This document shows positions 13,197 through 46,373 of a stretch of 64,000 bases of DNA, one piece after another. The notes below the pieces were generated by a model. It made no database searches. It was not told the origin of the DNA and saw nothing but the letters and a program-made list of their open reading frames with translations. The DNA comes from Bacteroidota bacterium (lineage in GTDB: Bacteria > Bacteroidota > Bacteroidia > Bacteroidales > UBA6013). Position 1 is the stretch's first letter; each line of letters starts with the position of its first letter. Made by a program: the position numbers and the translations under genes. The stretch spans positions 3,552 through 67,551 of the forward strand of contig JAIFMG010000047.1 of the NCBI GenBank assembly GCA_020048645.1, in the 5' to 3' direction.

Positions 13197-16100
13197 ATGT
13201 GGTCCAATTTGTTAGAAAAGTTACGTCCTTATCTGTTGAGCTTTTTCAACATCAAGGAGGAGGAAGCGCCCAAGTTCTACCTGCTGTTCTGGCACTCCTT
13301 CTTCTTGGGCATTTTCATCGCGATGTACTTCGTGCCGGCCAACGCCGTCTTCGTGAAGGACTACGGGAGCGAGACGCTGCCGCTGGCCTACATCGTCTCG
13401 GGCGTGGTGGGCTGGGCCGTGAGCACGGGCTACTCGCAGTTGCAGAAGAACGCCAACAGCAAGCGGCTGTTCGTCGGGGCGCTGCTGTTCACCTCGCTGG
13501 CCACGCTGACCATCCGCTTCCTGGGCCAGGGCATCCTGCCCGGCAAGACGGTGAGCTTCCTGGCCTTCGTGGGGGCCTGGCCCCTGACCACGCTGGTGGG
13601 CATCGTCTCCGGCGGCCTGGTGCTGGACCAGCTCAACCTGCGGCAGGCCAAGCGGCTGTTCGGCTCGATAGGCATGGGCGGGGTCCTGGCCGCTGTGATG
13701 AGCTACTTCCTGATACCGGTGCTGGTCAACCACCTGGGCCAGCCGCTCGACTTCTTCATCATCGCGGCCAGCGGCACCCTGGTGAGCACCGGGCTGCTGA
13801 TGGTCATCTACCGCCGCTACGACCCCTCGAAGAAGGACCAGGAGAGCGTTTACATAAAGTCCAAGGCCAAGCTCAAGGAAGAGCAGGACGCGCCCAAGCA
13901 CTCGCTCGGCTTCGCCGACCTGTTCCAGGACAAGTACCTGCGCTGGGTGATGGTCGTGGCCATGATGTCGAGCGTGCTGAACTACTTCACCGACTTCGGC
14001 TACCTCGCGGCGGTGCGGTCGCGGGGCATGTCGGCCGACCAGGTGGCGGTCTTCCTGGCCCTTGTCGGGGGCACCTTCAAGTTCGGCGAGCTGCTGATCT
14101 CGTACTTCTCGAGCCGGCTGCTCAGCCGCTACGGCGTCCGGCTGGGCCTGTCGATGCTGCCGTTCACCTCGCTGGCCTTCATCGGCCTGGCCACGGCCGT
14201 GGTGCTGGTCTTCGGCGTGGAGAGCGTCTTCTTCCTGGTGTTCATGGCCACCAACAAGATCTTCGACCGCGTCCTGCGCCACGGGCTCGACACGCCCTCC
14301 ATCAACATCCTCTACCAGCCCCTGCCCGACCACCAGAAGCTGGAGGCGCAGTCGCTCGTGGGCGTGGTAACGCAGATGTCCACCGGCCTCGCGGGCCTGC
14401 TGCTGCTCCTGCTCTCGTGGCTGCTCACGGGAGAGCACGGCTTCCAGCTCCGGTTCTACAACTTCTTCTTCCTGCCCATCCTGCTGCTCTGGGCCTTCTT
14501 CTCGCGCCGGCTCTACGAGAGCTACAAGGTCAAGCTCCGCGAGATCCTCAGCCAGAAGAAGCAGGAGCCCAGCCGCCACGAGCTCGAGCTGATGTACGGC
14601 AGCGAGCTGCTCTTCAGCCAGCTCGACAACGACAACATCGACGAGGTCAAGATGAGCGCCACCATCCTCTCGGAGACCAACCCGCTGGTGCTGCGCCCGG
14701 TGGCCGAGCGCCTGCTGGCCATTCCCAGCGCCACGGTCCAGAAGGCCATCCTGCGCAACGTGGACAGCACCTACCCGCCCGAGCTGCTCGGCCCGATCAG
14801 GTCCCTGCTCGAGTCGCCGCAGCAGACCATCCGCAGCCTGGCCGAGAAGGCCGCCGTCAGCATCGCCGCCGACGCCGAGCCGCCCCTCAAGGCCCGGGAG
14901 CTCGAGGCCCTCTGCCTCTCGGGCGAGCCCGACAAGCAGATCCGGGCCATCAAGCAGATGTTCCGCGCCAAGCTGCTGGGCGACGACCTCTGGATAGCCC
15001 AGCTCCTGGAAAGCCCCGACAACCGCGTCCGGCACTCGGCCATCGCCCTGGCCAGCCAGCGCGACTCGGCCCAGCTCAAGGCCCGCCTGGTGGACATGCT
15101 CAACTCGCCGAAGAACCACCACGTCGTGGCCAACGCGCTGGTCTTCCTGGGCGACCGCGTCCTGCCGCAACTGGCCATGTTCTTCGACCCTGAGCAGGCC
15201 CGGCTGGAGGTCCTGCTCAAGGTCGTCGAGGTCTGCGCCCGCGTCGGCTCCGAGGCCGCGCAGGACCTCCTGCTCAAGAACATCGACTACCAGGACCGCG
15301 AGGTCCAGGCCGCCATCATCCGGGCCCTCTACTTCAGCGAGTTCCAGGCCCGCGAGAACCAGAGCCAGCGCGTCAAGGACAAGATCGTCGATACCATCCG
15401 CACCATCGTCTGGCTGTTCGCCTCCATCAACGACGTGGTCAGCGAGCGCAACACCCTCAAGCTCATCCAGTCGCTCGACCTCGAGCGAGAGGCCAGCTTC
15501 GAGCGCCTCTTCATGCTCCTGAGCTTCCTCTACCAGCCCGCCACCATCGACCTCATCAAGAAGAACATCATCGGCGAGAACACCATCTTCGCCCTCGAGA
15601 TCATCGAGAACTTCATCCGGCAAGACCTCAAGGAGATGCTCGTCCCCCTCTTCGACGACATCTCCCTGAGCCAGAAGGTCAAGAAGCTCCAGCACTTTTT
15701 CCCCCAGGAGAAGCTCCGATTCACCGACAGGCTCCGCGACATCATCGTCAAGGACTTCGACAGCATCGACCTCTGGTCCAAGACCAAGGCCATCGAGCTG
15801 CTCGGCAAGATACACCGCCGCAAGAAGGAAGGCGTCGAGCCCGGAAGCAAGGCCGTGGCCGAGGAGCAGGTCGAAAGCAACATCAGGGTCTGGGTCCGCG
15901 AGGAGGTGGACAAGCTCCTGCTCCAGATCCGCCGGTCCGAGATGCCCGACGAGATCTTCGCCTGCCTCTACCACGCCGACGAGCTCATCTACTCCACCGC
16001 CGCCAAGATCATCTACGACGAGAACCCCGCACGCTGCTTCGACTACCTCAAGAAGCTCTCGCCCGAGAAGCAGGAGATGATGGAGATGCTCTCTTCCGGC

Positions 16101-16511
16101 AACACCGACAAGAAGCTCCTGGTCGAAAAGGTCAAGATGCTCAAGCGCCTGACCCTCTTCTTCTCCGTGCCCGAGAACGTCCTGGTCAAAATGGCCAAGA
16201 TCATGAACGTCTGGCAGCTCAAGAAAGGACAGGTCATCGACCTCAACTCCGAGACCTACCGCGACGACATCTTCGTGGTCGTCCGCGGAGGGCTCAAGGT
16301 GCAGCACCAGGACGACGACTCCGAGATCCTCTTCAACAAGAACGACATCCTGGTCCGAGGCCTCAACTTCGCCCCCGAGACCGACAGCATCATCGCCGAC
16401 AAGCAGACCATCGTCCTGCACGGAAACCGGTACAACTACTTCAACCTCCTGCTCGAGGAGACCGACATCATCTCCCACATCTTCGAGCAACTGCTCTGGA
16501 AACGCCCCTGA
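13197..16511 (+). CDS. Giant fusion protein: N-terminal 12-TM MFS/TLC(Npt1)-like permease, central HEAT-like repeat region, C-terminal cyclic-nucleotide-binding-like domain
   Basis: The ATG at 13197 gives 1104 aa. About 12 hydrophobic helices in a 6+6 layout are separated by a charged loop (KKDQESVYIKSKAKLKEEQDAPKH). The middle carries helical repeats (ESPDNRVRHSAIALAS, DREVQAAIIRALYF). The C-terminus reads LKRLTLFFSVPENVLVKMAKIMNVWQLKKGQVI...FVVVRGGLKV (a CNB beta-roll pattern). The domain family names are inference. Confidence 0.75.
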   Translation: MWSNLLEKLRPYLLSFFNIKEEEAPKFYLLFWHSFFLGIFIAMYFVPANAVFVKDYGSETLPLAYIVSGVVGWAVSTGYSQLQKNANSKRLFVGALLFTSLATLTIRFLGQGILPGKTVSFLAFVGAWPLTTLVGIVSGGLVLDQLNLRQAKRLFGSIGMGGVLAAVMSYFLIPVLVNHLGQPLDFFIIAASGTLVSTGLLMVIYRRYDPSKKDQESVYIKSKAKLKEEQDAPKHSLGFADLFQDKYLRWVMVVAMMSSVLNYFTDFGYLAAVRSRGMSADQVAVFLALVGGTFKFGELLISYFSSRLLSRYGVRLGLSMLPFTSLAFIGLATAVVLVFGVESVFFLVFMATNKIFDRVLRHGLDTPSINILYQPLPDHQKLEAQSLVGVVTQMSTGLAGLLLLLLSWLLTGEHGFQLRFYNFFFLPILLLWAFFSRRLYESYKVKLREILSQKKQEPSRHELELMYGSELLFSQLDNDNIDEVKMSATILSETNPLVLRPVAERLLAIPSATVQKAILRNVDSTYPPELLGPIRSLLESPQQTIRSLAEKAAVSIAADAEPPLKARELEALCLSGEPDKQIRAIKQMFRAKLLGDDLWIAQLLESPDNRVRHSAIALASQRDSAQLKARLVDMLNSPKNHHVVANALVFLGDRVLPQLAMFFDPEQARLEVLLKVVEVCARVGSEAAQDLLLKNIDYQDREVQAAIIRALYFSEFQARENQSQRVKDKIVDTIRTIVWLFASINDVVSERNTLKLIQSLDLEREASFERLFMLLSFLYQPATIDLIKKNIIGENTIFALEIIENFIRQDLKEMLVPLFDDISLSQKVKKLQHFFPQEKLRFTDRLRDIIVKDFDSIDLWSKTKAIELLGKIHRRKKEGVEPGSKAVAEEQVESNIRVWVREEVDKLLLQIRRSEMPDEIFACLYHADELIYSTAAKIIYDENPARCFDYLKKLSPEKQEMMEMLSSGNTDKKLLVEKVKMLKRLTLFFSVPENVLVKMAKIMNVWQLKKGQVIDLNSETYRDDIFVVVRGGLKVQHQDDDSEILFNKNDILVRGLNFAPETDSIIADKQTIVLHGNRYNYFNLLLEETDIISHIFEQLLWKRP

Positions 16512-16521
16512 CAGCGGGGCC

Positions 16522-17850
16522 TCACTGCCCTTCGGACACCAGCCCGCCGGTCAGGACCACCAGTTGGGTGTGGCTGTCCACCAGGTCGAACTTGGCCTGG
16601 GCGGCGGCCAGGGCCGACTGCAGGTAGAGCATCTGTATGGCGCGGTAGTCGAAGGAGTTGATGGCTCCGGACTTGTACTTGTCCTCGGCGATCTGGAGGT
16701 TGAGCCGCGCGGCCTCGAGGTTCTGCTCGGCCACCCGCTCTACCTGCTTGCGGGCCTCGTAGATGGCGTTGGCCGAGACGACCTGGCTGGCCAGTTGCAA
16801 CTGCGCCTGCTCGACGCGGACCTGGGCGATCTCGTGCTGGAGCTGCGCGTTCTCGATCTGCCGGTGGCGGTTCTGGCCGTCGAAGATGGTGTAGGCCACG
16901 CCGAGGTTGCCGTAGAAGTCGTAGCCGGTGGTGGTGATGCTGCGCTTCTGCTCCTCGACGGTCAGGGCGAAGCGCGAGCCTTGGAAGTCGGTGCCCAGGT
17001 TGAGGGTGACGCGGGGGTAGAGGGCCGTGCGGGCCTGGTCGATGGCGGTCTCGTTGAGGCTCCGGCTGAGGCGGAGGCTCTGGAGGTTCTTGTTCTCGGC
17101 CTCGGCCTTGGCGACCATCTGCTGGAGGTCGTAGGCCTGGGTCATGGGGCTGAGCCGCTCGGAGGGCAGGTAGGGCGCGTCGGGCTGCTCGCCCATGGCC
17201 AGGTTGAGGGCGCGCAGCGAGTTCTCGAAGTTGATCTTCTGGAGCAGGTAGTTCGAGGAGTCGCTCAAGAAGGCGTTCTGCTCCTGCAAGACCTCGAAGG
17301 TGACGGCGCTGCCGAGCTCCTTGCGGCTGAGGACGTACTGGTAGCGGTCTCGGCTGAGGGCCATGACCTCGGCGGTGACCTCGAGGCGCTCCTTCTGGAG
17401 CGAGGCGTCGTGGTAGGCCAGGATGACCTGCTGGAGGGTCTGCTCGATGGTGGCGGCGTAGGCCACCTGCGCGGCCTCCTCCTGGAGGCTGAGGCTCTCG
17501 CGGCTGGCGCTGACGGCGAACCCGTTGAAGAGCACCCAGTTGAGGTTGAGGTTGGGCGAGACGCTGTTGGTGGTGGCCCGGAACCGCTGGTCGGGGAAGG
17601 CCTGGTTGGGGCGGTCGTCGTAGCGGTTGTTGAAGTTGACGCTGGCCGTCAGGGTGGGCAGGGCGCCGGCGTTGGCCAGGGTGTTGTTGTTCTGGGCCAC
17701 CTGCCGCTCGCGCGTCACGATTTGGATCTGGTGGTTGTTTTCCAGGCCGATCTGGACGGCGTCGGCCAGGCTGATGGGCTTTTCCTGGGCCCGCGCGGGC
17801 GCTGCCAGGGCCAAGGCGGCGAGCAGGGGGGCGAATTTCCAAAATCTCAT
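16522..17850 (-). CDS. TolC family outer-membrane efflux protein
   Basis: The start is at 17850 (MRFWKFAPLLAALALAAPARAQ), giving 443 aa. ISLADAVQIGLENNHQIQ and repeated coiled segments are typical of OEP/TolC. It is the last gene of the efflux operon. Confidence 0.85.
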   Translation of the reverse strand: MRFWKFAPLLAALALAAPARAQEKPISLADAVQIGLENNHQIQIVTRERQVAQNNNTLANAGALPTLTASVNFNNRYDDRPNQAFPDQRFRATTNSVSPNLNLNWVLFNGFAVSASRESLSLQEEAAQVAYAATIEQTLQQVILAYHDASLQKERLEVTAEVMALSRDRYQYVLSRKELGSAVTFEVLQEQNAFLSDSSNYLLQKINFENSLRALNLAMGEQPDAPYLPSERLSPMTQAYDLQQMVAKAEAENKNLQSLRLSRSLNETAIDQARTALYPRVTLNLGTDFQGSRFALTVEEQKRSITTTGYDFYGNLGVAYTIFDGQNRHRQIENAQLQHEIAQVRVEQAQLQLASQVVSANAIYEARKQVERVAEQNLEAARLNLQIAEDKYKSGAINSFDYRAIQMLYLQSALAAAQAKFDLVDSHTQLVVLTGGLVSEGQ

Positions 17851-17897
17851 GCGGGTAGGGCGTTGGGTATGGGGTTCAGGGTGCGTTGGCGGGGCCT

Positions 17898-20800
17898 TTA
17901 GTCGATGTTGCGCTGCTGGTTCTCCACGGCCACCTCGACATGCTCTCGGTCGAGCCGTTTTCCGGTCCAGAACCAGATGGCGTACATCTTCAGGTCGTTG
18001 GCCACCAGGATGAGGGCCGGGAAGAAGAGCAGGATGAAGACGGTTCCCACGAGCACCCCGTAGGCCAGGGAAATGGCCATGGGGATCAGGAACTGCGCCT
18101 GCACGCTCTTCTCGAGGATCAGCGGGTAGAGCCCCAGGGTGGTGGTGATGGTGGTCAGCAGGATGGCCCGCAGGCGGGATGTCCCGGCCTCGTGCGCGGC
18201 CTCCTGCACGCGCTTGCCCTCCTCGAGCAGCGAGTTGTACTTCGAGAGGAAGACCACGGCGTCGTTGATGACGACCCCCGAGAGGGCTATCATGCCCCAG
18301 GCGCTGAGGGTGGAGACGGGGAATCCCTCGATGCCGTGCCCCCACAGGGCGCCCAGCCAGCCCAGGGGGATCATGAAGAGCACCAGCACGGCCTGAAGGC
18401 CCGACTTGAAGTGGATCATCAGGATCAGGGCGATGACGGCCAGGGCCAGGCCGAAGTACTTCTTCATCTCGGCGGTGTTCTCGGCGTTGCGCTTGGCCTG
18501 CCCCTGCGCCTCGACCAGGACCCCGGGGAAACGGGCGTTGAGCTGGGGGATGATTTCCTGGTCGATGCGCGCCAGGATGGGCGGGACGGGGTCGGCGGGG
18601 TTCTTCAGGTCGGCCTCCACGCGCACCTCCTTCTGGCCGTTGAAGCGCTTGATGTTGACGTAGCCGCGGGCGATCTGGTAGTCGGCCAGCTCCGAGAGGG
18701 GGTACTCGCCCAGTGCGGTCTTGATCTTCATCTGCTCGAGCTGCCCGAGGTTGAGGCGGTCCATCTCAGGGTAGCGGACCCAGACGCGGAGCTCGTCGCG
18801 GCCCATCTGGAGGCGCTGCGCCTGGCCTCCGAAGAAGCCCTGGCGCACCTGGTTGCTGATGGCGGCGTGGTTGAGGCCCAGGAAGTAGGCCTGGGGCTTC
18901 AGCTCGAGCTGCACCTCGAGCTTGCCCTCGGCGTTGTTGTCGTTGATGTTGTCGAGCTCGGCGAGCTTGGCCAGCTCCTCCTTGAAGAAGGCCTTGGCCA
19001 GCTCCAGCTCGTGGCCGTCCTTGCCCAGCAGGCTGTACGAGACGGGGCTTCCCCAGCGGTTTCCGCCGCCGACGGTGAACTTGTCGGCCTCGGGCACCGG
19101 GCCGATCTTCTCTCGCACGCGGGTAGAGACGTCCGTGGCGGCGATGGCGGCTCCCTCCATGTTGCGGAGGATGACCTCGATGCTGCCGGCGTGCCCGCCT
19201 GCCTCCTGCCCGCTGAAGGCGGAGCCCATGGTCGCGAAGGTGTACTTCACGTAGGGGACCGTGTCGCCGTGCTCGGCCATGAGCTCGTCGTTGGCCTCCC
19301 AGACGGCCTTCTCGAAGCGGACCAGGAACTCCTTGGTGCGGGCCTCGCCCGCCCCGGGCGTGAAGGCCAGGTTGATGCTGAAGGTGTCGAACTGGACGAA
19401 GGGGAAGAAGGTCGCCTGGATGAAGCCGCCGCGCACCAGGCCCACCGTCAGCAGGATCAGGGCCACGGGTAGGGTCGCCATGACCCACTTGTGCCGGATG
19501 ATCACGAGCAGCAGCCGCCCGTAGAGCTTGTCGCGCAGGTAGTCGATGGCGTCGTCCAGGCGGTCGCGCAGCGTCTTGGTCTGGCCCTTCTCGCTCTCCT
19601 TGAGCACATTCGAGTTGGCCAGGTGCGCCGGCAGCACGAAGAAGGCCTCCAGCAGCGAGAAGGCCAGGCTGAAGACCACCACGAAGGCCATCTCGTACAT
19701 GAACTCGAGTGAGCCCTCAATCAGGAAGAGAGGCAGGAAGGCCACGATGGTCGTGGTCACGGACGTGATCACCGACGGCAGAACCTCCATGGTGCCGTCC
19801 ACGGCGGCCCGCGCCGGGCTCTTGCCCATCTTGAAGTGCGTGAAGACGTTCTCCCCGATCACGATGCCGTCGTCCACCAGGATGCCGACCACCAGGATCA
19901 TCCCGAAGAGCGAGATCATGTTGATGGTGACGCCCGAGAGCGCGGCCACGATGAACATGGCCAGGAAGGCCGAGGGGATGCCCCAGGCCACCCAGAACGA
20001 GAGCCGGATGCTCAGGAACAGCGACAAGGCCAGGACCACGAGCACCAGCCCTTGGATGCCGTTGGTTATCAGCAGGTCGAACCGCGAGTTGAGCAGCTCC
20101 AGCCGGTCGAAGGTTACTACCAGGCTGACGTCCTGGTGCTGGGCGTTGAAGTTGGCCGCGTACTGGTTGCAGTAGTCGGATATGGCCTCCAGGTCCTCCT
20201 CGGTCAGGCGGTCGATGCGGAAATAGACGGCCTGCTTGCCGTTGATCAGCGACTCGGAGGCCACGTCGGCGAAGGCCAGCCGCACCTGGGCCACGTCGCG
20301 CACGCGCAGGAAGCTGCCGTCGGGGTTGGCCCGCAAGACGATTTCCGCTATCTTGTTGGGATCCACGCTGCGCGCCCGCGAGCGGATGAGGACCTCCTGC
20401 TCGTCGGACTTGATCTGCCCTCCGGAAACGTCGCTGTTGTTCAGGGCGATGGCCGCGGAGACCTGGTCGATGGTCAGGCCGTAGCGGCGCAGGTCCTCCT
20501 CGCTGACCTCGACCGAGAGCTCCAGGGCCGGGTAGCCCGAGAGGGCTATCTGCGACATGACGCCCGAGCGCAGGAACTCGTCCTCGATGTCCTCGGCCAT
20601 GGCCTTGAGCGTCAGCAGGTCGGCCTCGCCGTAGAGGGCCATCTGCATGGCCGGCGAGAAGGGGCGCTGCTTGAAGATGACCGGCGGCTCGGCGTCCACG
20701 GGGAAGCCCGAGATGCCGTCCACGGCGTTCTTGACCTCGGTGAGCATCTCGTCGAGGTCGTACTGCCCGGTGGACTCGATGGTCACGGAGGCGAAGTTCT

Positions 20801-21059
20801 CGGACGAGGTGGAAGTGATTTCCTTGATGCCGACGATGCCCCGCACGGACTCCTCGATGCGGGTGGTCACGCCCTCCTCCATCTCCTTGGGCGATGCCCC
20901 GGGGTAGGCCACCTGGATGCTGATGATCTTGGCCTCGGTCTCGGGGAAGAAGGACTTCTTCATGTTCAGGTAGCTGATCGACCCGAAGACCATGAGCACC
21001 ACCACGATGATGTTGGCGTAGAAGGGATACTTGACGAAGGCTTTGATCAGATTTTCCAT
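17898..21059 (-). CDS. RND efflux transporter permease (AcrB/AcrD/AcrF family)
   Basis: 1053 aa. The N-terminus is MENLIKAFVKYPFYANIIVVVLMVFGSISY. It has a 12-TM layout with two large periplasmic loops, and VGILVDDGIVIGENV in TM4. Confidence 0.9.
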   Translation of the reverse strand: MENLIKAFVKYPFYANIIVVVLMVFGSISYLNMKKSFFPETEAKIISIQVAYPGASPKEMEEGVTTRIEESVRGIVGIKEITSTSSENFASVTIESTGQYDLDEMLTEVKNAVDGISGFPVDAEPPVIFKQRPFSPAMQMALYGEADLLTLKAMAEDIEDEFLRSGVMSQIALSGYPALELSVEVSEEDLRRYGLTIDQVSAAIALNNSDVSGGQIKSDEQEVLIRSRARSVDPNKIAEIVLRANPDGSFLRVRDVAQVRLAFADVASESLINGKQAVYFRIDRLTEEDLEAISDYCNQYAANFNAQHQDVSLVVTFDRLELLNSRFDLLITNGIQGLVLVVLALSLFLSIRLSFWVAWGIPSAFLAMFIVAALSGVTINMISLFGMILVVGILVDDGIVIGENVFTHFKMGKSPARAAVDGTMEVLPSVITSVTTTIVAFLPLFLIEGSLEFMYEMAFVVVFSLAFSLLEAFFVLPAHLANSNVLKESEKGQTKTLRDRLDDAIDYLRDKLYGRLLLVIIRHKWVMATLPVALILLTVGLVRGGFIQATFFPFVQFDTFSINLAFTPGAGEARTKEFLVRFEKAVWEANDELMAEHGDTVPYVKYTFATMGSAFSGQEAGGHAGSIEVILRNMEGAAIAATDVSTRVREKIGPVPEADKFTVGGGNRWGSPVSYSLLGKDGHELELAKAFFKEELAKLAELDNINDNNAEGKLEVQLELKPQAYFLGLNHAAISNQVRQGFFGGQAQRLQMGRDELRVWVRYPEMDRLNLGQLEQMKIKTALGEYPLSELADYQIARGYVNIKRFNGQKEVRVEADLKNPADPVPPILARIDQEIIPQLNARFPGVLVEAQGQAKRNAENTAEMKKYFGLALAVIALILMIHFKSGLQAVLVLFMIPLGWLGALWGHGIEGFPVSTLSAWGMIALSGVVINDAVVFLSKYNSLLEEGKRVQEAAHEAGTSRLRAILLTTITTTLGLYPLILEKSVQAQFLIPMAISLAYGVLVGTVFILLFFPALILVANDLKMYAIWFWTGKRLDREHVEVAVENQQRNID

Positions 21060-21101
21060 GCTGGGAACCGGTGTTGTGTGGGGAGGTGGGGGCGGGCGGG
21101 C

Positions 21102-22232
21102 TTAGGCCTCGGGCTCGAGGGTCTGGACGGGGTCGTTCTCGCGGGCGTTGGCCAGGGGCTCCACCACCAGCTCGGCTCCCTGGGGCAGCCCGTCGAAGAT
21201 GAGGGTCTCGTCGTTGTACTTCAGGACGCGTATCTCGCGCTTGGCGAGCCTTCCGTCCTGCACGATGAAGACCTGGTTCTGGTTGAAGACGGCGTTGCGG
21301 GGCATCTCCATGGCCTGCTCCCAGCTTCCGCCGGGGAAGGTGGCCGTGAGGAACTGGCCGTTGTAGAGCGGGTGCCCGGGGTCCTGGTTGACGCCCACGA
21401 ACACGGCCACCGACTGGGTGTTGGGGTCGATGAAGTCCGACTTGCGGGACACGGTGCCGCCCCACTGGTGCGAGCCGGCCTTGTCCGTGACGGTGACGGC
21501 GTCGCCCAGGCGTATCCAGGTGGCGTTGGTGGCGTCCACGGGCACCTCCAGCTCGAGGCGGTCGGTGCTGATGATGCGGGCCAGGCGGGCGCCCGGGTTG
21601 GCCACGGAGCCCACCTCCATGACCACATCGGCGTAGGTGCCGTTGAAGGGGGCGTGGAGGAAGTACTTGAGCTGCCGGAGCTCCTCGCTCTTGATGGCGT
21701 AGAAATCGGCCAGGATGTTGCGGCTGGCCAGGTAGATCTTCTCCTGGTCGGAGCGGGGCTGGGGCATGTCGGGCATGGGCTTGTCGAGGTCGATGGCGTT
21801 GAAGAACGCGAGCCAGGCCGGGTAGCTGGCCGGATGGTCGATCTTGAAGTCGGGCAGCAGGTTGGCGATCGAGTTGAGGAAGCGGCTCTTGAGGCCCTTG
21901 AGGGCCAGGACGGCCTCGTCGTTGAGGATGCGCAGGAGCAGTTGTCCCTCGCGGAAGCTCTGTCCCTTCTTCAGGGGCACGCTGCCGGCCAGGATCTTGC
22001 CCTGGACCTCGGCCATGAGGTCCAGGTCGCGCTGCGAGTTGAGGCGCCCGGAGGCGGTTATCCCGGCCCGGATGTCGGCGTAGCGGACGCTCTGGGTCCG
22101 CACGAAGCGGGCCTCCTGCTGCCGGTTGGGCGCGGCCGGGGCCTCGGCCTGCGCGGCGAGCATGCGCATGCCCAGGAAGCCCAGGGCCATGATGGCGAAC
22201 ATGGAGGTCAGGATGGCGATCTTGCGTTTCAT
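21102..22232 (-). CDS. RND efflux periplasmic adaptor (membrane fusion protein, HlyD family)
   Basis: 376 aa with a single N-terminal TM (IAILTSMFAIMALGFLGM), followed by lipoyl/beta-barrel-like segments. It sits directly upstream of the RND pump. Confidence 0.85.
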   Translation of the reverse strand: MKRKIAILTSMFAIMALGFLGMRMLAAQAEAPAAPNRQQEARFVRTQSVRYADIRAGITASGRLNSQRDLDLMAEVQGKILAGSVPLKKGQSFREGQLLLRILNDEAVLALKGLKSRFLNSIANLLPDFKIDHPASYPAWLAFFNAIDLDKPMPDMPQPRSDQEKIYLASRNILADFYAIKSEELRQLKYFLHAPFNGTYADVVMEVGSVANPGARLARIISTDRLELEVPVDATNATWIRLGDAVTVTDKAGSHQWGGTVSRKSDFIDPNTQSVAVFVGVNQDPGHPLYNGQFLTATFPGGSWEQAMEMPRNAVFNQNQVFIVQDGRLAKREIRVLKYNDETLIFDGLPQGAELVVEPLANARENDPVQTLEPEA

Positions 22233-22301
22233 TTTCGTTGTCGGTCTTATGGGTCCTTTTGTCGTTCGGGTCGTTCTGTCGCGGGGGGGGGCGGGCGGGC
22301 C

Positions 22302-22757
22302 TCAGAGGCATCCCGTGCCTTCGAAGTCGGGGCTGGTGTTGGCGGCGATCTTGTCGAGCACGCGCAGGGCCAGGGCCAGCTCGTCGGGCGGGATGCCGCG
22401 GGTGGCGCCGCTGAGGGTCTGCTCGATGACCAGGGCCAGCTCGGCCTGGCGGTCGCGGCCGGCGGGGGTGAGCACCACGCGCTTGTTGCGCCGGTCCCTG
22501 GGGTCTCCCTCGCGCCGCACCAGGGCGTCCCGCTCGAGCTTGTCGAGCAGGTTGGTGATGCTGGCCTTGTTCAGGAAGATCTTGTGGGCGAGCTCCTGCT
22601 GGTTCATGCCGTCGGAGTGGGTCAGGGCGAAGAGCACCAGGAGCTGCTCCTTGGTGGTGGGGTAGCCCTTCTCGGCGAACCCCCGGTCTAAGGCGTTGCC
22701 CAGCACGCGGGCCGTCCGGCCGATGACGCGTCCGACTTTGCTCAGGTCCATTTCCAT
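22302..22757 (-). CDS. MarR family transcriptional regulator
   Basis: 151 aa starting at MEMDLSK. The winged-helix core reads QLLVLFALTHSDGMNQQELAHKIFLNKASITNLLDKLERDALVRREGDPRDRRNKRVVLTPAG. An alternative upstream ATG at 22820 would overlap the AT-rich palindrome, so it is less likely. Confidence 0.85.
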   Translation of the reverse strand: MEMDLSKVGRVIGRTARVLGNALDRGFAEKGYPTTKEQLLVLFALTHSDGMNQQELAHKIFLNKASITNLLDKLERDALVRREGDPRDRRNKRVVLTPAGRDRQAELALVIEQTLSGATRGIPPDELALALRVLDKIAANTSPDFEGTGCL

Positions 22758-22778
22758 CTCCAGGCTCCGTCCGATTAA

Positions 22779-22792
22779 GTTTGAATTCAAAC
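22779..22792. promoter_or_regulatory. Perfect 14-bp palindrome, candidate MarR operator
   Basis: GTTTGAATTCAAAC lies 22 nt upstream of the marR start, inside a locally AT-rich stretch (22770-22815). Confidence 0.5.
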
Positions 22793-23524
22793 GGTCGCGA
22801 ATTAAATCAATTCGTGCCATATGCCAAAGATGTTCTAAAGCATCGACCGGAAAAAGGCTCGGGCGCCATTGCGCGGGCCTGGCGCCGCCGGGGCCGCAGG
22901 GGAGGCCCTGGCAAAAGTTTTTCGGCATGGGCGATTGGCCTGGCGGTCCGCGCGCGCCCGTGCCAGCCATTGCCTGGGTGCCGCGCGATTTTGCCCAGCG
23001 ACGGGCAGGCGACAGGGCAGGCCCCGCGGTGCCGGGCCGGGCGCGGCGGAGACCGGGAAAGTCGTCGGCCGACGGGCCCGCGCCCGGGCGTGGTGTCCAT
23101 CGCGTTGGAAAACAAGCGAATGCCCAATTCTTTCCATCAGGGGAAAGCCCCCGCGCGGCTTGCCGGGTGGCCAAGGCGAATGCCGGGCTCCCGGCTCCGG
23201 TGGCCGCCCCCAAAAGGCGGGGAGCGCTGGCGGGCTCCCCATCCTGGCCAGGGCAAGGCTGGAGGCCCTCCGGGGCCATGCCGAAAGACTTTCCGGTCGA
23301 GGCCGCCGGGGCCTCGCGCGTAGTTTCAGGGTAGGAGGGGCCCCGCTCCGGGCTGCGATTATTTGCCTATATTTAAGCGCCAAAACGGCGACAAGGGAAT
23401 GCGGAAAAACATTTCCGGGTTTGGCAAGGTCGAAATTAGAAGGGATCTTGTGGCCTCGAAAGCGAGCGCGGGCGGCCCTGCGCGCGGCTGGCCTCAAGAA
23501 CACCCGAACAAAGCACCCTTCGGC

Positions 23525-24955
23525 ATGGCATTCAAAGACAAACTGCGCGTTTTCCAATCCCGGCTACTGAACATCGTCTTCTGGTCCGTGGTGTCGGCCG
23601 CCTTCATCGGGCCGGGCACCATCACCACGGCCACGAAGGCAGGCGCCGCCTATGGTTTCGACCTGCTGTGGGCGATAGCCTTCTCGACCTTCGCGTGCCT
23701 GCTGCTGCAGGAGGCCAGCGCGCGCATCACGATCTACTCGGGCCGCGACCTGGGCCAGGCCATCGCCAAGCAGTTCGAGGGCAAGCCCTCGGGCGTGGTG
23801 GTGCTGGTGCTGGTGATCGGGGCCATCATCCTGGGCTCGGCGGCCTACGAGGCGGGCAACGTCCTGGGCTCGGTGGAGGGCCTGAAGATGCTCTTCCCTT
23901 CGGTGCCGTCATGGCTGCTGGTGAGCGCCACGGGCCTGCTGGCCTTCCTGGCCCTGAGCCTCCGCTCGCTGGCGGCGATCTCGAAGTTCATGGGCCTGCT
24001 CGTGATGCTGATGGGGATTGCCTTCTTCTTCGCCATCTTCAGCGTGGACCTGGACTGGCCCAGGCTGCTGGAGGGCATGGTGGTGCCCCGGATACCCGAG
24101 TTTTCGCCCCTGACGGGCGACCCGGGCGCGGGCCTGCTGATCCTGGCGCTGATCGGCACCACGGTGGTCCCCTACGACATCTTCCTGGGCTCTGGGGTGC
24201 TAGAGAAGAAGCAGACCATCAAGGAGATGCGCTTCGGCCTGAGCATCGCCATCGTGCTGGGCGGGATCATCTCGATGGCGGTGCTGGTGGTGGGCACGCT
24301 GGTGGACGCCGAGGTGGTCCGGAAGGTGTCCGGCCAGGAGCAGGTGACCGAGGCGGTGCTCTCGGAGCACCTGTACGAATCGCTGACGCTGACCCTGAAC
24401 GACAGGCTGGGCATCGCCGGGGTGGCGGTGCTGGGCTTCGGGATGTTCGCGGCGGGCTTCTCGTCGGCCATCACGGCGCCGCTGGCCTCGGCCCTGACGG
24501 CCAAGAGCCTGTTCGAGAACCGCAACCGCGACCGCTGGGACACCCGGTCGCGCAACTACAAGCTCATCTGGGGAGGGGTGCTTTCCTTCGGGCTGGCCTT
24601 CGGCTTCGCGGGGGTCCAGCCCGTCCCTGCGATCATCTTCGCGCAGGCGCTCAACGGGCTGATACTCCCGTTCATCAGCATCTTCCTGATCTTCGTGATC
24701 AACGACATATCCATCATGGGCAAGGAGGGCATCAACGGCTGGTCCTCGAACATCCTGATGGCGGTGGTGGTCTGCGTGAGCCTCATCATGGGGCTGATCA
24801 AGGTGCGCGACGCCGTGGCGGAGGTCTGGGAAATCGTGATCGAGAAGGGCTGGATGAGCCTGGAGATGATCGCCATGACGGCCCTGCTGATCAGCCTGGC
24901 CATCCTGACGCGCATCTACGTGGTGCGCAGCCGGAAGCTCAAGAACCTGAAATGA
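23525..24955 (+). CDS. Nramp-family divalent metal cation transporter
   Basis: 476 aa starting at MAFKDKLRVF. FIGPGTITTATKAGAAYGFDLLWAIAFSTFACLLLQEASARITIYSGRDLGQAI matches the Nramp TM1-TM2 region, and there are about 11 TM helices. In-frame upstream starts (23363, 23399) are possible but poorly coding-like. Confidence 0.8.
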   Translation: MAFKDKLRVFQSRLLNIVFWSVVSAAFIGPGTITTATKAGAAYGFDLLWAIAFSTFACLLLQEASARITIYSGRDLGQAIAKQFEGKPSGVVVLVLVIGAIILGSAAYEAGNVLGSVEGLKMLFPSVPSWLLVSATGLLAFLALSLRSLAAISKFMGLLVMLMGIAFFFAIFSVDLDWPRLLEGMVVPRIPEFSPLTGDPGAGLLILALIGTTVVPYDIFLGSGVLEKKQTIKEMRFGLSIAIVLGGIISMAVLVVGTLVDAEVVRKVSGQEQVTEAVLSEHLYESLTLTLNDRLGIAGVAVLGFGMFAAGFSSAITAPLASALTAKSLFENRNRDRWDTRSRNYKLIWGGVLSFGLAFGFAGVQPVPAIIFAQALNGLILPFISIFLIFVINDISIMGKEGINGWSSNILMAVVVCVSLIMGLIKVRDAVAEVWEIVIEKGWMSLEMIAMTALLISLAILTRIYVVRSRKLKNLK

Positions 24956-25067
24956 ACCGCACCAACGCGCAAAATTGGCCCCGCTGGAAAATGGAGAGCT
25001 TTTTTTTCGTTAATTTGAAGGCTTGCGCGGAAGCGCGGCACCTCAACAACATAAGCAGACGCGCCCA

Positions 25068-28000
25068 ATGGCAACGCTCGAGATGAAACCGTTTTTGCTG
25101 AAAACCTTTAATCTCAAACCTGAGGAAGGCTTGAAGTTCACGCTGTTGTTCTTCCACTCCTTCTTCCTGGGCCTGTTCATCGCGTTCTATTTCGTGACGG
25201 CCAACGCGGTCTTCATCGACCACTACGACAGCAAGATGGTCCCCGTGGCCTACCTGGTGGCGGGCATCTCGGGCTACCTGATGACCTCGATCTACTCCTA
25301 CATGCAGAAGCGGGTCAACAGCCTGGTGCTCTTCCTGACGGCCCTCTCGTTCATGCTGGTCATCCCGCTGGCCGGCCGGCTGGGCCTGAACTTCTTCGAC
25401 GAGCAGCGCCTGAGCTTCTTCGTGTTCATCTGGGGCTGGCCCTTCATCTCGCTGGTGGGCATCGAGTCGGGCGGCCTGGCCCTGCGCTTCTTCAACCTCC
25501 GGCAGGTCAAGCGCCTGTTCGGCCTGGTGAACATGGGCGGGGTCATCGCCTCCATCATCGGCTACCTGGTCATCCCCGTGCTGCTGCGCCACCTGGGCCA
25601 CGCCTACGACCTGCTCTACTTCGGGGCCGTCAGCGTGCTGGTCAGCGTGGTGATGCTGCTGCTCATCTACAAGAACTTCTCGACCGAGACCACCCAGATG
25701 ACCTCCCTCCAGAAGCCCAAGGACAGCGAGAAGAAGGGCTTCCTCAAGCTCTCGCACGACCGCTACTACGCGCTGATCTTCTTGTCGGCCTGCTTCTCCA
25801 TGACGGTCATCTACATCATGGACTTCGGCTTCCTGGCCACCACCAAGTCGCAGATCAGCGACCCGGCCAAGCTCTCCTACTTCCTGTCCATCGTCTTCGC
25901 GGCCCTGAAGATCGGCGAGCTGATCCTCTCGTACTTCTCGGGCCGCATCCTGAGCAACCGCGGGGTGAAGCTGGGCCTGACCATCCTGCCCGTCACCCTG
26001 AGCCTGCTGCTGGTGGGGGCCCTGGCCTCCGAGCTGGTCTCGTCGGTGGCCAGCGTCGGCTTCTTCGCCTTCATGGTGCTGGGCAAGTCCCTCGAGCGCA
26101 TCATCCGCCGGGCCCTGGACGACCCCGCCTTCAACATCCTCTACCAGCTCCTGCCCGACGACGAGAAGCTCTCGGTGCAGACCCGCGTGGGCGTCATCAT
26201 GCAGCTCTCCATCAGCATCGCCGGAGGGGTGCTCTGGCTCTTCACCGAGATCTTCAAGACCCCCGACCAGGGCTTCGACCTCTACTACTTCCCCTTCATC
26301 TTCCTGCCCATCCTCCTGGCCTGGAGCTTCATCGCCTTCAAGCTCTACAAGCGCTACAAGCTCAAGCTCCGCGACATCCTCGAGGAGCGCAACCGCAAGA
26401 AGGCCAAGCAGGTACACCGGGACATCTACGGCAGCGACGTGCTCAGCAACGAGCTCAAGACCGAGCGCGACATCGAGTCGCTCCGGCTGGCCGTCACCAT
26501 CCTCTCCGAGACCAACCCCCGCAACATCGAGCCCCACGCCGCCCACCTGCTGCGCCTGAACGACTCCACCATCCGCAAGGCCATCCTGAGCAACATCAAC
26601 CCCTCCTGGACCCTCGACGTCAAGGCGCCCATCCAGGAGATCCTCGCCAGGCCCGACCAGGCCGACGAGGAGACCCTCGAGCTGGCCCAGCTCGCCCTGT
26701 GCAGCTTCGACTACGCCGACATCGAGGCCCACCAGCCCGAGCAGATCCTGGCCATGGTCGATTCCAACTCCATCCGCGACCGCATCACCGTGGTCAAGTA
26801 CCTCTTCTACAAGGAGCTGCCCGACGACGAGCGCGTCATCTTCCGCCTGCTCGAGGACCCCGACAAGACCATCCGGCAGGCGGCCATCCGCCTGGCCGGC
26901 AAGGCCCGCACCCCGGCCCTGACCCGGCACCTGGTCCACCTGATCGAGACCCCCGAGTTCCACCACATCACCGGGAGCACCCTGGTCGAGCTCGGCGAGG
27001 AGGTGCTGCCCGAGCTCAACGGCCTGGTCAGGCCCGCGCAGGACGCCATCGTCATCAAGAAGGTCATCGAGATAGGCGCCCGCATCGGCACCCTGGCCGC
27101 CAAGGAGATGCTCCTGGCCCTGGTCAACTACCCCGACAAGGAGGTCCAGCGCGCCGTCATCCAGGGCCTGTACTTCTGCCATTTCCAGGTCACCGAGGAG
27201 CAGGCCCCCGTGGTCAAGAAGAAGATACAGGAGGTCGTCGGCAACATCCTCTGGGCCTACGTCACCATCAGCGACATCGAGGCCGAGAAGAACACCCTCA
27301 AGCTCGTCCAGGCCATCGACCTCGAGCGCGAGAACGAGTTCGAGCTGCTCTTCACCCTGCTCAGCTTCGTCTATCAGCCCGCCACCATCGAGCTCATCAA
27401 GACCAACATCATCGGCGAGAACATCATCTTCGCCCTGGAGATCATCGACAACTTCATCGCCCAGGACGTCAAGCAGCTCATCATCCCCATCATCGACAAG
27501 GTCTCGGTCAACCAGCGCGCCAAGAAGCTCAAGGCCTACTTCAACTTCGAGCGGATGCGGCTGGCCGAGCGCCTCAAGGACATCATCCTCGAGGACTACT
27601 CCCGGGTGGACATGTGGTCCAAGAACAAGGCCATCGAGCTGCTGGCCAAGCTCTTCAAGGGCAAGAAGTCCCAGGAAATCAAGGCCAAGGAGGAGGACAC
27701 CTACCGAGACGTCCCGATCTGGACCAAGGAGGAGGCCGCCGACGTGCTCTCCAAGATCCGCCGGAGCGAGATCCCCGACGAGATCTTCCTCTGCCTGCAC
27801 CACGCCGACGAGCTGGTGTACAGCACCGCCGCCAAGATCATCTACGACGAGCACCCCGTGACCTGCGTCAACCACCTCAAGAAGCTCTCGCCGGTCAAGC
27901 AGGAGATGATCGAGATCCTCGAGAACTCCATGTCCGACCTGCTGCTCGAGCGGGTCAAGCTGCTCAAGCGCATCCCCCTGTTCTTCCGCCTGCCCGAGAA

Positions 28001-28334
28001 CACCCTGGTCAAGCTGGCCAAGCTCTTCAAGAGCCAGACCATCGGCAAGGAGGGCGTGGTCATGCTGGTCAACCAGGACGGCTCGGAGAACATCTACATC
28101 ATCCTCCGGGGGAAGATGTTCTACAAGAAGCACGACAAGGTGGTCTCGAAGTTCACCAACCGCGACATCGTGGTCCGCGGGCTCAACGTGGAGCTCAACG
28201 CCCGCGAGATCTTCTCGGAGCGCAACACGACCCTGCTGGCGGGCAACCGCTTCTCGTACTTCAACCTGCTGGTGGACGAGACCGAGATCATCCGCTACAT
28301 GTTCGAGGTGCAGCAGCCCAGCGGCAAGAAGTGA
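25068..28334 (+). CDS. Second copy of the giant permease / HEAT-like / cNMP-binding-like fusion protein
   Basis: 1088 aa from the ATG at 25068 (alternative start at 25083). It is colinear with 13197..16511. Examples: IRRSEIPDEIFLCLHHADELVYSTAAKIIYDEHP against IRRSEMPDEIFACLYHADELIYSTAAKIIYDENP, and LLSFVYQPATIELIKTNIIGENIIFALEIIDNFI against LLSFLYQPATIDLIKKNIIGENTIFALEIIENFI. Confidence 0.75.
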   Translation: MATLEMKPFLLKTFNLKPEEGLKFTLLFFHSFFLGLFIAFYFVTANAVFIDHYDSKMVPVAYLVAGISGYLMTSIYSYMQKRVNSLVLFLTALSFMLVIPLAGRLGLNFFDEQRLSFFVFIWGWPFISLVGIESGGLALRFFNLRQVKRLFGLVNMGGVIASIIGYLVIPVLLRHLGHAYDLLYFGAVSVLVSVVMLLLIYKNFSTETTQMTSLQKPKDSEKKGFLKLSHDRYYALIFLSACFSMTVIYIMDFGFLATTKSQISDPAKLSYFLSIVFAALKIGELILSYFSGRILSNRGVKLGLTILPVTLSLLLVGALASELVSSVASVGFFAFMVLGKSLERIIRRALDDPAFNILYQLLPDDEKLSVQTRVGVIMQLSISIAGGVLWLFTEIFKTPDQGFDLYYFPFIFLPILLAWSFIAFKLYKRYKLKLRDILEERNRKKAKQVHRDIYGSDVLSNELKTERDIESLRLAVTILSETNPRNIEPHAAHLLRLNDSTIRKAILSNINPSWTLDVKAPIQEILARPDQADEETLELAQLALCSFDYADIEAHQPEQILAMVDSNSIRDRITVVKYLFYKELPDDERVIFRLLEDPDKTIRQAAIRLAGKARTPALTRHLVHLIETPEFHHITGSTLVELGEEVLPELNGLVRPAQDAIVIKKVIEIGARIGTLAAKEMLLALVNYPDKEVQRAVIQGLYFCHFQVTEEQAPVVKKKIQEVVGNILWAYVTISDIEAEKNTLKLVQAIDLERENEFELLFTLLSFVYQPATIELIKTNIIGENIIFALEIIDNFIAQDVKQLIIPIIDKVSVNQRAKKLKAYFNFERMRLAERLKDIILEDYSRVDMWSKNKAIELLAKLFKGKKSQEIKAKEEDTYRDVPIWTKEEAADVLSKIRRSEIPDEIFLCLHHADELVYSTAAKIIYDEHPVTCVNHLKKLSPVKQEMIEILENSMSDLLLERVKLLKRIPLFFRLPENTLVKLAKLFKSQTIGKEGVVMLVNQDGSENIYIILRGKMFYKKHDKVVSKFTNRDIVVRGLNVELNAREIFSERNTTLLAGNRFSYFNLLVDETEIIRYMFEVQQPSGKK

Positions 28335-28573
28335 GCCTGCCGGCCTTGCCCTAGGCTTCCGCCTGGTCTTTCGCGTCCCCCCCCCCCGGGGCTGCCTTCT
28401 GGAATGGCGCGCCGGGGGCGCGGATCGGGCAGATGGGCACCGGCGAGCCCTTGGAATTGGCGCCCTCCGTCCGTCACCGGCCCCCAAGTTTCCACAAAGG
28501 AAAGCGGAGCAGCCGTTTTTTTTGTTTTTTTGGGCCGCCAATCCCGCCGCCCGCAACTTCACCCGCTGACAAC

Positions 28574-29263
28574 ATGATCCTCTGCATCGAAAGCTCATCC
28601 CAGAACTGCTCGGTGGCCCTGTGGCACCAGGGCCGCGTCGCGGGCCTGATCGAGGAGGACACTCCCCGGGCCCACGCCAGCCTGCTCTCGGTCTTCGTCG
28701 AGAGGCTGCTGGCCCAGGCGGGCATCTCGCCGAGGGAGCTCGACGCCGTGGCTGCCAGCGCCGGGCCGGGCTCCTACACGGGCCTGCGCATCGGCGTCTC
28801 GCTGGCCAAGGGCATCGCCTTCGGGGCCGGCGTCCCGCTGCTGGCCGTGGACACCCTGGCCAGCCTGGCCCACCACGCGGGCCAGGCGGCCGGCAATCCG
28901 CCCGGCGCGCTGTTCTACCCGACGGTCGATGCCGGCCGCACGGAGCTCTTCGCGGGCATCTACGACGGCCAGGGCAGGGCCCTGCGCGCGGCGGGGCCCG
29001 AGTTCGTGGAGCAGGAGCCCTGGATGCCCCAGCTCGGGCAGGGGCCGCTGGTGGTGCTCGGCTCGGGCGCCCCCAAGTGCGAGCAGGCCATCCGCCACCC
29101 CAACGCCAGCTTCCGCCCCGAGGTCCTGCCTTCGGCCAGCCACCTGGGCCCCCTGGCCCAGCGCGCGCTCGAGGCTGGCCAACTGGCCGACCTGGCCTAC
29201 TTCGAGCCTTTGTACCTCAAGGCCTACGTGGCCAAGTTGCCCAGCAAAAACGTTTTCCGATGA
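28574..29263 (+). CDS. tsaB: tRNA N6-threonylcarbamoyladenosine (t6A) biosynthesis protein TsaB
   Basis: 229 aa. MILCIESSSQNCSVAL...LDAVAASAGPGSYTGLRIGVSLAKGIAFGAGVPLLAVDTL is the YeaZ/TsaB signature. Confidence 0.85.
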   Translation: MILCIESSSQNCSVALWHQGRVAGLIEEDTPRAHASLLSVFVERLLAQAGISPRELDAVAASAGPGSYTGLRIGVSLAKGIAFGAGVPLLAVDTLASLAHHAGQAAGNPPGALFYPTVDAGRTELFAGIYDGQGRALRAAGPEFVEQEPWMPQLGQGPLVVLGSGAPKCEQAIRHPNASFRPEVLPSASHLGPLAQRALEAGQLADLAYFEPLYLKAYVAKLPSKNVFR

Positions 29264-37779: not shown

Positions 37780-38005
37780 CGCAAAAAGGATTTGAAAATG
37801 TGGGATTTAGATAAAAAAGACTATTTTTGCAGCCGCTTAAATGACGGCGTCCCGCGAAGGGTCGATGTCTTTTTTTCGAGGGGGCAGCCGGTGTTTCAAC
37901 GGGCCTGGACAAGGTCGAGTGGTTTCATCTGGGTTTAATTCGCTCTTTTTCAAGTGGTTATTCCGCTTGTGAAGGGCATTTTGTCTGTCTTTGCGAAAAA
38001 AAGAT

Positions 38006-38035
38006 GTTGGAATGAGCGAAATAGTTCTACCTTTG
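38006..38035 (+). promoter_or_regulatory. Candidate promoter of the str/S10/spc/alpha ribosomal cluster
   Basis: GTTG at 38006-38009, an 18-nt spacer, then TACCTTTG (TAnnTTTG) at 38028-38035, about 42 nt before the rpsL ATG. A second TAnnTTTG (TATTTTTG) lies at 37822-37829. Confidence 0.35.
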
Positions 38036-38076
38036 CCCGCCGTTTTGCCCGAGAAACAAGTAATATCAAAGCGTTT

Positions 38077-38499: not shown

Positions 38500-38508
38500 G
38501 GCCGAACC

Positions 38509-38988: not shown

Positions 38989-39020
38989 TTGGCAACCAAT
39001 AACAACGGGAGATCATCGTC

Positions 39021-41114: not shown

Positions 41115-41138
41115 GAAACAGTTTAACGTCAATTTGAG

Positions 41139-46371: not shown

Positions 46372-46373
46372 CA

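Follow-up and report, generated by a model that had tools for sequence, protein, structure and literature searches.

The 64,000-nt stretch analysed here (hereafter, the window; contig JAIFMG010000047.1 of assembly GCA_020048645.1, a Bacteroidota bacterium of the Bacteroidales lineage UBA6013) carries two genes for large membrane-protein fusions on its plus strand. The second of them, the feature under study (hereafter, copy 2), lies at 25068-28334 and encodes a 1088-aa protein in which an NTT-type MFS carrier domain is predicted to be joined to HEAT repeats and to a C-terminal domain resembling cyclic nucleotide-binding (CNB) domains. Its paralogue (copy 1; 13197-16511, ATG at 13197, 1104 aa) is free-standing and ends 8.56 kb before it (16511 to 25068). 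As a first-pass annotation of the sequence had reported, copy 2 follows a gene of the Nramp family on the same strand after 112 nt, that gene ending at 24955, and BLASTP confirmed copy 2 as a second full-length, colinear permease fusion 8.6 kb downstream of the first (44% identity and 65% positives over 1096 columns, end to end). Copy 2 is a further member of a known, functionally uncharacterised family and represents an Nramp-linked type, and copy 1 represents a free-standing type.

The two copies are a diverged paralogue pair of real genes. Their codon-aligned DNA is 63% identical and blastn recovered partial segments only (68-73% identity), therefore copy 2 is no assembly duplicate, the artefact that the first-pass annotation had named as fatal to its own reading if the copies proved near-identical in DNA. 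An assembly duplication or a decaying pseudogene copy has nothing in its favour beyond two similar genes lying 8.6 kb apart, and can be dismissed with near certainty. Apart from the nucleotide divergence, both open reading frames (ORFs) are intact and full length, the residues invariant across the family are kept in each, and the recurrence of both proteins, unchanged, on independent public assemblies (a JGI metagenome contig, the NCBI metagenome-assembled genome (MAG) GCA_002428105.1, and Logan assemblies) already refutes it. A protein identical to copy 2 is present on 7-12 public contigs, and megablast of copy 2 against plasmids gave no match. The G+C content at third codon positions (GC3) is 96-98% in both copies, similar to that of the neighbouring genes, which indicates that neither is a recent import and that both are long resident; the window as a whole has ~65% G+C. 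Ribosomal protein S12 of the window falls into one cluster (90% identity or more) with S12 of Prolixibacteraceae and Muribaculaceae, which places the organism in the Bacteroidota, as a member with high G+C. Of the two pairwise comparisons that the annotation had suggested, identity by domain is given below (34-64% by region), and the dN/dS of the pair (NG86: dN 0.52, dS 0.44) was rejected as uninterpretable because a GC3 of 96-98% pins the synonymous sites. GC3 is 92-98% in every gene tested in the window, so dS estimates are meaningless throughout. The same bias generates very long spurious antisense ORFs, e.g., one of 1219 aa opposite copy 2 (24939-28598, minus strand).

In copy 2, residues 1-445 form a predicted 12-helix MFS domain of the NTT lineage (25068-26402; Pfam, Foldseek, and hhalign), followed by proximal HEAT repeats at residues 446-700 (26403-27167; Pfam HEAT_2, E 1.3e-10; PDB alphaRep/HEAT, E 1e-15), a distal helical scaffold at residues 701-970 (27168-27977) that holds the two most conserved blocks (~760-805 and 886-940), and a CNB-homology beta-roll at residues 971-1088 (27978-28334; AlphaFold2 strands and a family-profile match to cGMP-dependent protein kinase, PKG), all encoded on the plus strand. 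Pfam returned only MFS_1 (under its cut-off in copy 2) and HEAT_2 (E 1.3e-10 and 2.7e-8), and NCBIfam returned nothing in either copy. Using phmmer, copy 1 was tied over 98% coverage (E 1e-84) to a homologue with the domain order PF03219, HEAT, PF00027 (P0136), and also to other proteins with these domains; PF00027 is carried by three homologues (P0136, P0142, and P0144). A profile of 36 family members aligned by hhalign to 14 PF03219-positive proteins with 100% probability (E 7e-77, 958 columns, from residue 4), and against PDB the family profile matched designed HEAT proteins (alphaRep, E 1e-15) and, less strongly, cGMP-dependent protein kinase in its CNB domains (E 4e-4).

The AlphaFold2 model of copy 2 (pLDDT 85.8, pTM 0.77) has 12 long helices, an all-helical solenoid at residues 455-955, and a beta-roll at 987-1060 between helices. 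The best structural matches of its N-terminal domain in PDB, as found by Foldseek, are two ATP/ADP translocators, AtNTT1 (9j3l, E 1.2e-7) and Chlamydia pneumoniae NTT1 (CpNTT1; 9j3n, E 2.7e-7), with TM-scores on the target of 0.67-0.72 (AtNTT1 0.72); other MFS carriers (NupG, SPNS2, and VMAT) score nearly as high. Unlike this structural likeness, sequence identity to the two translocators is just 14-16% and the profile match is marginal or absent (AtNTT1, E 0.028), and neither carries a HEAT or CNB tail, unlike copy 2. Invariant intramembrane residues, e.g., N46, D252, K281, E284, Q371, and Q379, are kept in both copies. A scan of 1.84 billion representative proteins found 972 clusters (50% identity) that match copy 2 at E <= 1e-30.

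With an NTT-type 12-helix carrier, a C-terminal HEAT domain, and a CNB fold, as judged from profiles and the model, both copies are members of the NTT-HEAT-cNBD fusion family (Major et al. 2017, Genome Biol Evol; PMC5381601), and the earlier description of a permease fused to a helical scaffold and a CNB-like C-terminus is borne out by profile, fold, and homologue evidence. That study described the architecture as monophyletic, widespread, and functionally uncharacterised, occurring also in free-living bacteria and ranging from Chlamydia and cyanobacteria to oomycetes, with HEAT repeats being typical protein-binding scaffolds. The likeness to the fusions described there consists of the identical three-part order and of homology over the full length (the phmmer and hhalign matches above), whereas the Bacteroidota/Chlorobi-labelled clade of the window is too divergent for the Pfam NTT and cNMP models; no NTTs were reported in Chlorobi (PMC5381601), and this clade includes Chlorobi-labelled MAGs. 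Later literature found under NTT/HEAT/cNBD terms adds no functional data for these fusions. Neither that study nor this later literature mentions paralogue pairs, a position after an Nramp-like gene, or a position between Cache-GAF and LytTR genes.

Restricted to the C-terminal region, the family profile matched PKG CNB-B (E 1e-5) over its N-terminal half only, and also Crp-family regulators (E 0.011). The N-terminal helices and the first strands align to PKG, and the match picks up again at an invariant Arg that shortly precedes the C-terminal helix; in between, the segment of the family profile corresponding to the phosphate-binding cassette (PBC) fails to align. Among 22 aligned sequences the Gly is the only invariant residue of the cassette, the next position is L/I/M/S instead of the canonical Glu, and no Arg column is conserved, so that the pattern of a functional cAMP/cGMP cassette (Gly-Glu ... 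Arg-[Ser/Thr]-Ala) was found neither in copy 2 nor elsewhere in these family sequences. Copy 2 does have an Arg (in NAREIF) eight residues after the invariant Gly, near the expected position of the PBC Arg, and the first-pass annotation had contrasted it with a Thr in copy 1. The aligned residue of copy 1 is in fact Asp, and the column holds E/D/K/T/Q/N/H in other sequences, with Arg in 1/22 (copy 2 only), which makes this Arg no conserved feature. By alignment and model, the C-terminal domain has a CNB fold without the conserved Glu and Arg that are the phosphate ligands of cyclic nucleotides, and it is probably not a cAMP sensor. The loss of these residues suggests a regulatory or docking CNB-homology module more than a cAMP/cGMP sensor. 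An example of CNB domains that do not bind cyclic nucleotides is given by the CNBHDs of KCNH/EAG-type channels. Like them, the domain has a CNB beta-roll between helices without the canonical phosphate-binding Glu and Arg, a likeness at the level of the general CNB fold.

Conservation between the copies is patchy. Relative to copy 1, identity is 44% in the MFS domain (residues 1-445 of copy 2), 34% in the proximal HEAT repeats (446-700), 54.5% at residues 701-865, 64% at 887-970, and 38% in the CNB-like domain (971-1088). It peaks at 75% (766-805) and 70% (886-925), where the two conserved peptide blocks quoted in the first-pass annotation are located in both copies, and falls to 20-35% within 442-645. 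High conservation of the distal scaffold (64-75%) and low conservation of the CNB-like domain (38%) thus agree with that annotation; the "much lower" value ascribed to the transmembrane (TM) helices does not, since their 44% equals the mean of the whole protein and the minimum lies in the proximal HEAT repeats. From this pattern a conserved interaction core with diverged substrate or ligand specificity had been deduced. The most and least conserved segments of the pair are those of the family (93 other members), and the 40-residue identity profile of the pair tracks family-wide conservation (Pearson r = 0.79), so the patchiness is not specific to the paralogues. A search for specificity-determining positions returned a single alignment column, near residue 20, that separates Nramp-linked from free copies. 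Neither result bears out the deduction.

To place the duplication, we used loci from a one-genome-per-species scan (80 of 108 matches kept, from 69 assemblies of Bacteroidales-, Bacteroidota-, and Chlorobi-labelled MAGs) and a neighbour-joining tree rooted on distant family members with 100 bootstraps. Copy 1 and copy 2 were sisters in 0/100 bootstraps. Copy 2 grouped with P0002, L009, and L016-L018 (91/100) and copy 1 with P0025, P0038, and L020/L072/L074 (58/100), and L016-L018 and L020/L072/L074 stem from the same three MAGs. Two further mirrored clades, each with one sequence from each of eight other MAGs, were both supported in 100/100. As the copies are never sisters and have separate orthologues in the same MAGs, the tree indicates that the duplication is not recent: it is old, each copy having its own orthologues in other MAGs. 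Two copies were detected in 11/69 assemblies, which is a lower bound given that the MAGs are fragmentary and the loci are 80 out of 108 matches. Two copies within 10 kb were found at no other locus among the 80, and the closeness of the two copies in the window is incidental.

The position after an Nramp-like gene is shared with relatives. Such a gene lies directly upstream of the fusion gene and on the same strand in 24/80 loci, at a median distance of 49 nt (often -19 to +83 nt), so the objection foreseen by the first-pass annotation, i.e., synteny conserved in no relative, does not apply and the adjacency is meaningful. Four loci (L010, L039, L080, and L081) plus L177 have two tandem Nramp-like genes before the fusion gene, and in 15 loci a GGACT-like gene precedes the Nramp-like gene. 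Members of the copy 2 clade with sufficient upstream sequence are all Nramp-linked (L009, L011, L016-L018, and P0003), and no Nramp linkage was found among eight relatives of copy 1 (L020, L072, L074, P0010, P0039, P0048, P0025, and P0038); around copy 1 and its relatives no neighbour of any kind is conserved. Of the 11 MAGs with two copies, 8 combine a linked copy with a demonstrably unlinked one, and in the remaining 3 one copy is too near a contig end to be classed. The annotation had asked whether orthologues always occur in pairs and near Nramp or RND genes: pairs recur (11/69) without being universal, and the association is with Nramp (24/80) and not with RND.

Other members of the family sit beside signal-transduction genes. 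A dCache-HAMP-GAF gene is directly upstream of the fusion gene in 21 loci, mostly 0-30 nt away, 13 loci have a LytTR response regulator directly downstream (gap ~7 nt), and in a rumen clade the fusion gene is flanked by PBP-SpoIIE and MCP genes. The P0003 contig (L177), with the order dCache, Nramp, Nramp, fusion gene, joins both types of context. The dCache-HAMP-GAF protein, encoded in the clade of loci L013, L021, L022, L024, L026, L028, L029, L032-L036, L045, L050, L052, L056, L065, L076, L077, and L086, has no output domain, and no histidine kinase is in view at these loci; the dCache-HAMP-GAF, fusion, and LytTR genes may constitute an unconventional signalling cassette.

The partner of copy 2 (23399-24955, plus strand; 518 aa) is an Nramp-fold carrier that spans positions 1-352/357 of the Pfam Nramp profile (PF01566; E 1.4e-62). 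Its scores against the metal-transporter models of NCBIfam are far below their cut-offs (MntH, 115.5 bits against 430; TIGR01197, 97.9 against 272.5). In Nramp structures, TM1 Asp-Pro-Gly-Asn and TM6 Met-Pro-His bind the metal via Asp, Asn, and Met. The partner has AAFIGPGT in TM1 and GTTVVPYD in TM6 in place of DPGN and MPHN, by which all of the metal-coordinating Asp, Asn, and Met are gone, and both motifs are invariant in 28/28 partner sequences. The "Nramp metal transporter" of the first-pass annotation is thus right as to the fold and doubtful as to the metal; with every canonical ligand replaced, transport of transition metals by the partner appears unlikely.

The subfamily with this motif form, AAFIGPGT plus GTTVV(P/G)Y(D/N), is broad: at least 588 metagenome stretches were confirmed as relatives in a pattern scan. 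It is labelled in databases as divalent-metal transporters. In the best 80 of these metagenome loci (L093-L172), a hydantoinase/oxoprolinase-like neighbour is present in 36, and a homologue on Haloferax volcanii pHV4 (L173, 4995-6212) has the same TM1 motif; the genes for hydantoinase/oxoprolinase A and B come after it, with overlap between stop and start codons. Among Nramp-family proteins encoded in oxoprolinase or nitrogen-metabolism operons, PxpT of Corynebacterium glutamicum and YcsG of Bacillus subtilis have been reported as 5-oxoproline importers (PMC13274462), and YcsG also as an Mn2+ importer (PMC10448178). Compared by fold and operon context, the partner resembles YcsG/MntG and PxpT in its Nramp fold and in having relatives in hydantoinase/oxoprolinase operons; in the window, no oxoprolinase or GGACT gene lies beside the partner.

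The 112 nt that separate the Nramp-like gene from copy 2 (24956-25067, plus strand) include a T8 run at 25000-25007. A terminator scan predicted no plus-strand terminator in this spacer, no stable RNA fold was found in it relative to shuffles (z = +0.59), and Rfam at gathering thresholds returned nothing in the whole window, hence no riboswitch before the Nramp-like gene, copy 1, or copy 2. These results are compatible with co-transcription, which is supported by junctions that are short or overlapping in relatives, and the Nramp-like and fusion genes are probably in one transcript.

A common GAG..C-T7/8 tract had been noticed before both copies. The tracts exist, that of copy 1 being a GAGTC-T7 at 13106-13117 on the plus strand (T7 at 13111-13117), ~80 nt before the gene and one position away from where it had been placed. 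As a specific shared signal they do not stand: the window has 21 T7 runs where 4.7 are expected, many being intergenic, and a further T-run (28516-28531) lies ~50 nt before tsaB, so T7 runs are generic here and those before both copies are uninformative. The Bacteroidota promoter TTTG-N19-TAnnTTTG was tried as a common element and rejected, as copy 2 does not have the layout of copy 1, where a near match is present (TTTG at 13115-13118, TATTTTTA at 13138-13145). Upstream of copy 1, a weak terminator-like hairpin (13 pairs, 4 of them G-C) with the T7 run occupies 13082-13117 on the plus strand (hairpin plus T-run predicted at 13082-13112), where no plus-strand gene ends; it may be a leader structure or due to chance.

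Between the two copies lies an efflux operon (16522-22757, minus strand) comprising marR (22302-22757), MFP (21102-22232), RND (17898-21059), and OEP/TolC (16522-17850), as identified with Pfam and the gene calls on an identical public contig. Its last gene, OEP, is convergent with copy 1, in agreement with the gene order first described. The arrangement in which the copies bracket this operon and the Nramp gene is likewise real. As a functional bracket the operon is not supported: no homologues of MFP, OEP, MarR, TsaB, or the TonB receptor were detected within 10 kb in the 80 related loci, RND was represented there by one unrelated fragment, and no efflux genes lie beside the five closest copy 1 relatives examined. 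Given their absence from the 80 loci (0/80), the position of the efflux operon between the copies is incidental. The divergent intergenic region between marR and the Nramp-like gene (22758-23398) is unusually long (641 nt) and contains no Rfam RNA.

Taken together, we favour, with fair though limited confidence, a reading in which copy 2 is the second of two anciently duplicated NTT-HEAT-cNBD fusions, a carrier with a regulatory tail, acting in the pathway of the Nramp-like carrier. Its three parts would be a 12-helix MFS carrier of the NTT branch, a cytosolic HEAT solenoid of ~500 residues, and a C-terminal CNB fold. The invariant polar and charged intramembrane residues suggest that the MFS domain is an active carrier; the HEAT-CNB tail would set its activity or dock partners, with the CNB-like domain serving as a regulatory or docking module rather than as a cAMP/cGMP sensor. 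Copy 2 may share a pathway with the upstream Nramp-like carrier, and because that partner is without all canonical metal ligands, the shared substrate pathway is probably that of a small organic or anionic solute rather than of Mn2+/Fe2+. Several observations weigh against this reading. Pfam PF03219 (NTT; E <= 0.1) and PF00027 (cNMP) gave no direct match in either copy, so that both domains were assigned through profile-profile, fold, and intermediate-sequence evidence, and a smaller N-terminal profile had no match in PDB. The copy 1 clade was supported in only 58/100 bootstraps, and Nramp-linked copies are spread over several clades, so the numbers of duplications and of gains and losses of linkage are not fixed by the tree. 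At 112 nt, the spacer exceeds that of most relatives and might accommodate a promoter of its own. Of the best 80 metagenome loci of the Nramp-like subfamily, 65 have at least 600 nt of downstream sequence, and the fusion gene follows in 0/65; the linkage is one-directional, so the partnership is no general trait of the Nramp-like gene and belongs to only a part of the family in Bacteroidota. The loss of metal ligands argues against Mn/Fe transport without pointing to a substrate, and the literature on YcsG is split between 5-oxoproline and Mn2+.

The main rival is a transceptor or signalling scaffold, in which the MFS domain would sense a solute and the HEAT-CNB tail relay this to partners, transport not being the main role; we hold this to be possible though rather doubtful. 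Its partners would be the Nramp-like carrier for copy 2 and, in other clades, Cache/GAF sensors, LytTR regulators, SpoIIE phosphatases, or MCPs. The signal-transduction genes that are the conserved neighbours outside Nramp-linked loci fit it (dCache-HAMP-GAF in 21, LytTR in 13, and PBP-SpoIIE/MCP in the rumen clade), as do the gene order of the P0003 contig, the cytosolic location of the most conserved segments (distal HEAT blocks and the first part of the CNB domain), and the typical use of HEAT repeats as protein-binding scaffolds. It sits badly with a TM domain that is as conserved as the cytosolic core and has many invariant polar and charged positions befitting a working carrier, and with copy 1 and its relatives, which are without any conserved partner. 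A classical NTT under cyclic-nucleotide control, importing or exchanging ATP/ADP or other nucleotides and gated by cAMP, with paralogues that differ in nucleotide specificity, is less likely, and we consider it improbable. cAMP-gated nucleotide transport was speculated for the family by Major et al. (PMC5381601), the nearest solved folds are ATP/ADP translocators, relatives are annotated by some sources as AAA-family ATP:ADP antiporters, and distant members keep Pfam-detectable PF03219 and PF00027. The copies themselves have neither detectable domain, L/I/M/S stands at the PBC Glu position, the Arg column is variable (Arg in 1/22), and NupG, SPNS2, and VMAT match nearly as well as NTT1; in these free-living Bacteroidota, moreover, it is sensors and an Nramp-like carrier that recur beside the fusion gene, and not genes of nucleotide metabolism.

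The first-pass annotation had organised the pair around metal import (Nramp) and efflux (marR-RND-TolC), with a ligand specificity marked by Arg or Thr and a shared GAG..C-T7/8 signal. The gene order in the window is as it described, the Nramp adjacency is conserved, and conservation is patchy; even so, this reading is very improbable. RND, MFP, OEP, and MarR are conserved beside no relative, the D, N, and M that bind metal are missing from the partner, copy 2 alone has the Arg, the identity profile mirrors family constraint, and T-runs are generic, by which its RND, Arg, and T-tract parts are largely refuted. We suggest only speculatively that the Nramp-like carrier (GPGT/VVPYD) and the NTT-HEAT-CNB protein might form a so far undescribed two-component membrane module of Bacteroidota, the tail sensing a metabolite and gating or partnering the carrier. 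The module would handle a small nitrogenous organic compound, e.g., 5-oxoproline or a gamma-glutamyl derivative, the free-standing and Cache-GAF/LytTR copies being variants wired to other outputs.

For the window itself the meaning of these results is modest, as the pair is an ordinary ancient one and the useful by-products are the Nramp-like plus fusion module and the ligand-less Nramp-like subfamily. For the family they offer two handles on function, i.e., one Bacteroidota paralogue lineage tied to an Nramp-like carrier of non-metal type and another clade tied to Cache-GAF/LytTR genes. These handles suggest co-expression partners and candidate substrates, and that the CNB-like domain is probably no cAMP sensor. 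The results also draw attention to an Nramp-fold subfamily of wide distribution whose members are routinely labelled as transporters of divalent metals, although every canonical metal ligand is missing from them.

Around the pair, the next gene after copy 2 is tsaB (28574-29263, plus strand), and upstream of copy 1, on the minus strand, a TonB-dependent receptor (10172-12139) and a MORN-repeat protein (12484-12939) were identified with Pfam and the gene calls on the identical public contig. Before them lies a 2-kb island of ~30% G+C (7900-10050) in a genome of 65-70% G+C. Its single gene (8122-9903, plus strand) has PF09820 (AAA-ATPase_like) and PF08011 (PDDEXK_9) domains, and a perfect 16-nt inverted repeat marks its right edge (10007-10046); the island looks like a recent horizontal acquisition. 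Farther downstream, G+C is lower and the AT skew strongly positive (+0.2 to +0.28) over the region 38000-56000. At its start lie rpsL (38119-38499) and a 697-aa ORF (39021-41114) that is a candidate fusA from position and length alone, and the region as a whole has the look of a plus-strand ribosomal-protein cluster of the ordinary, highly expressed kind.

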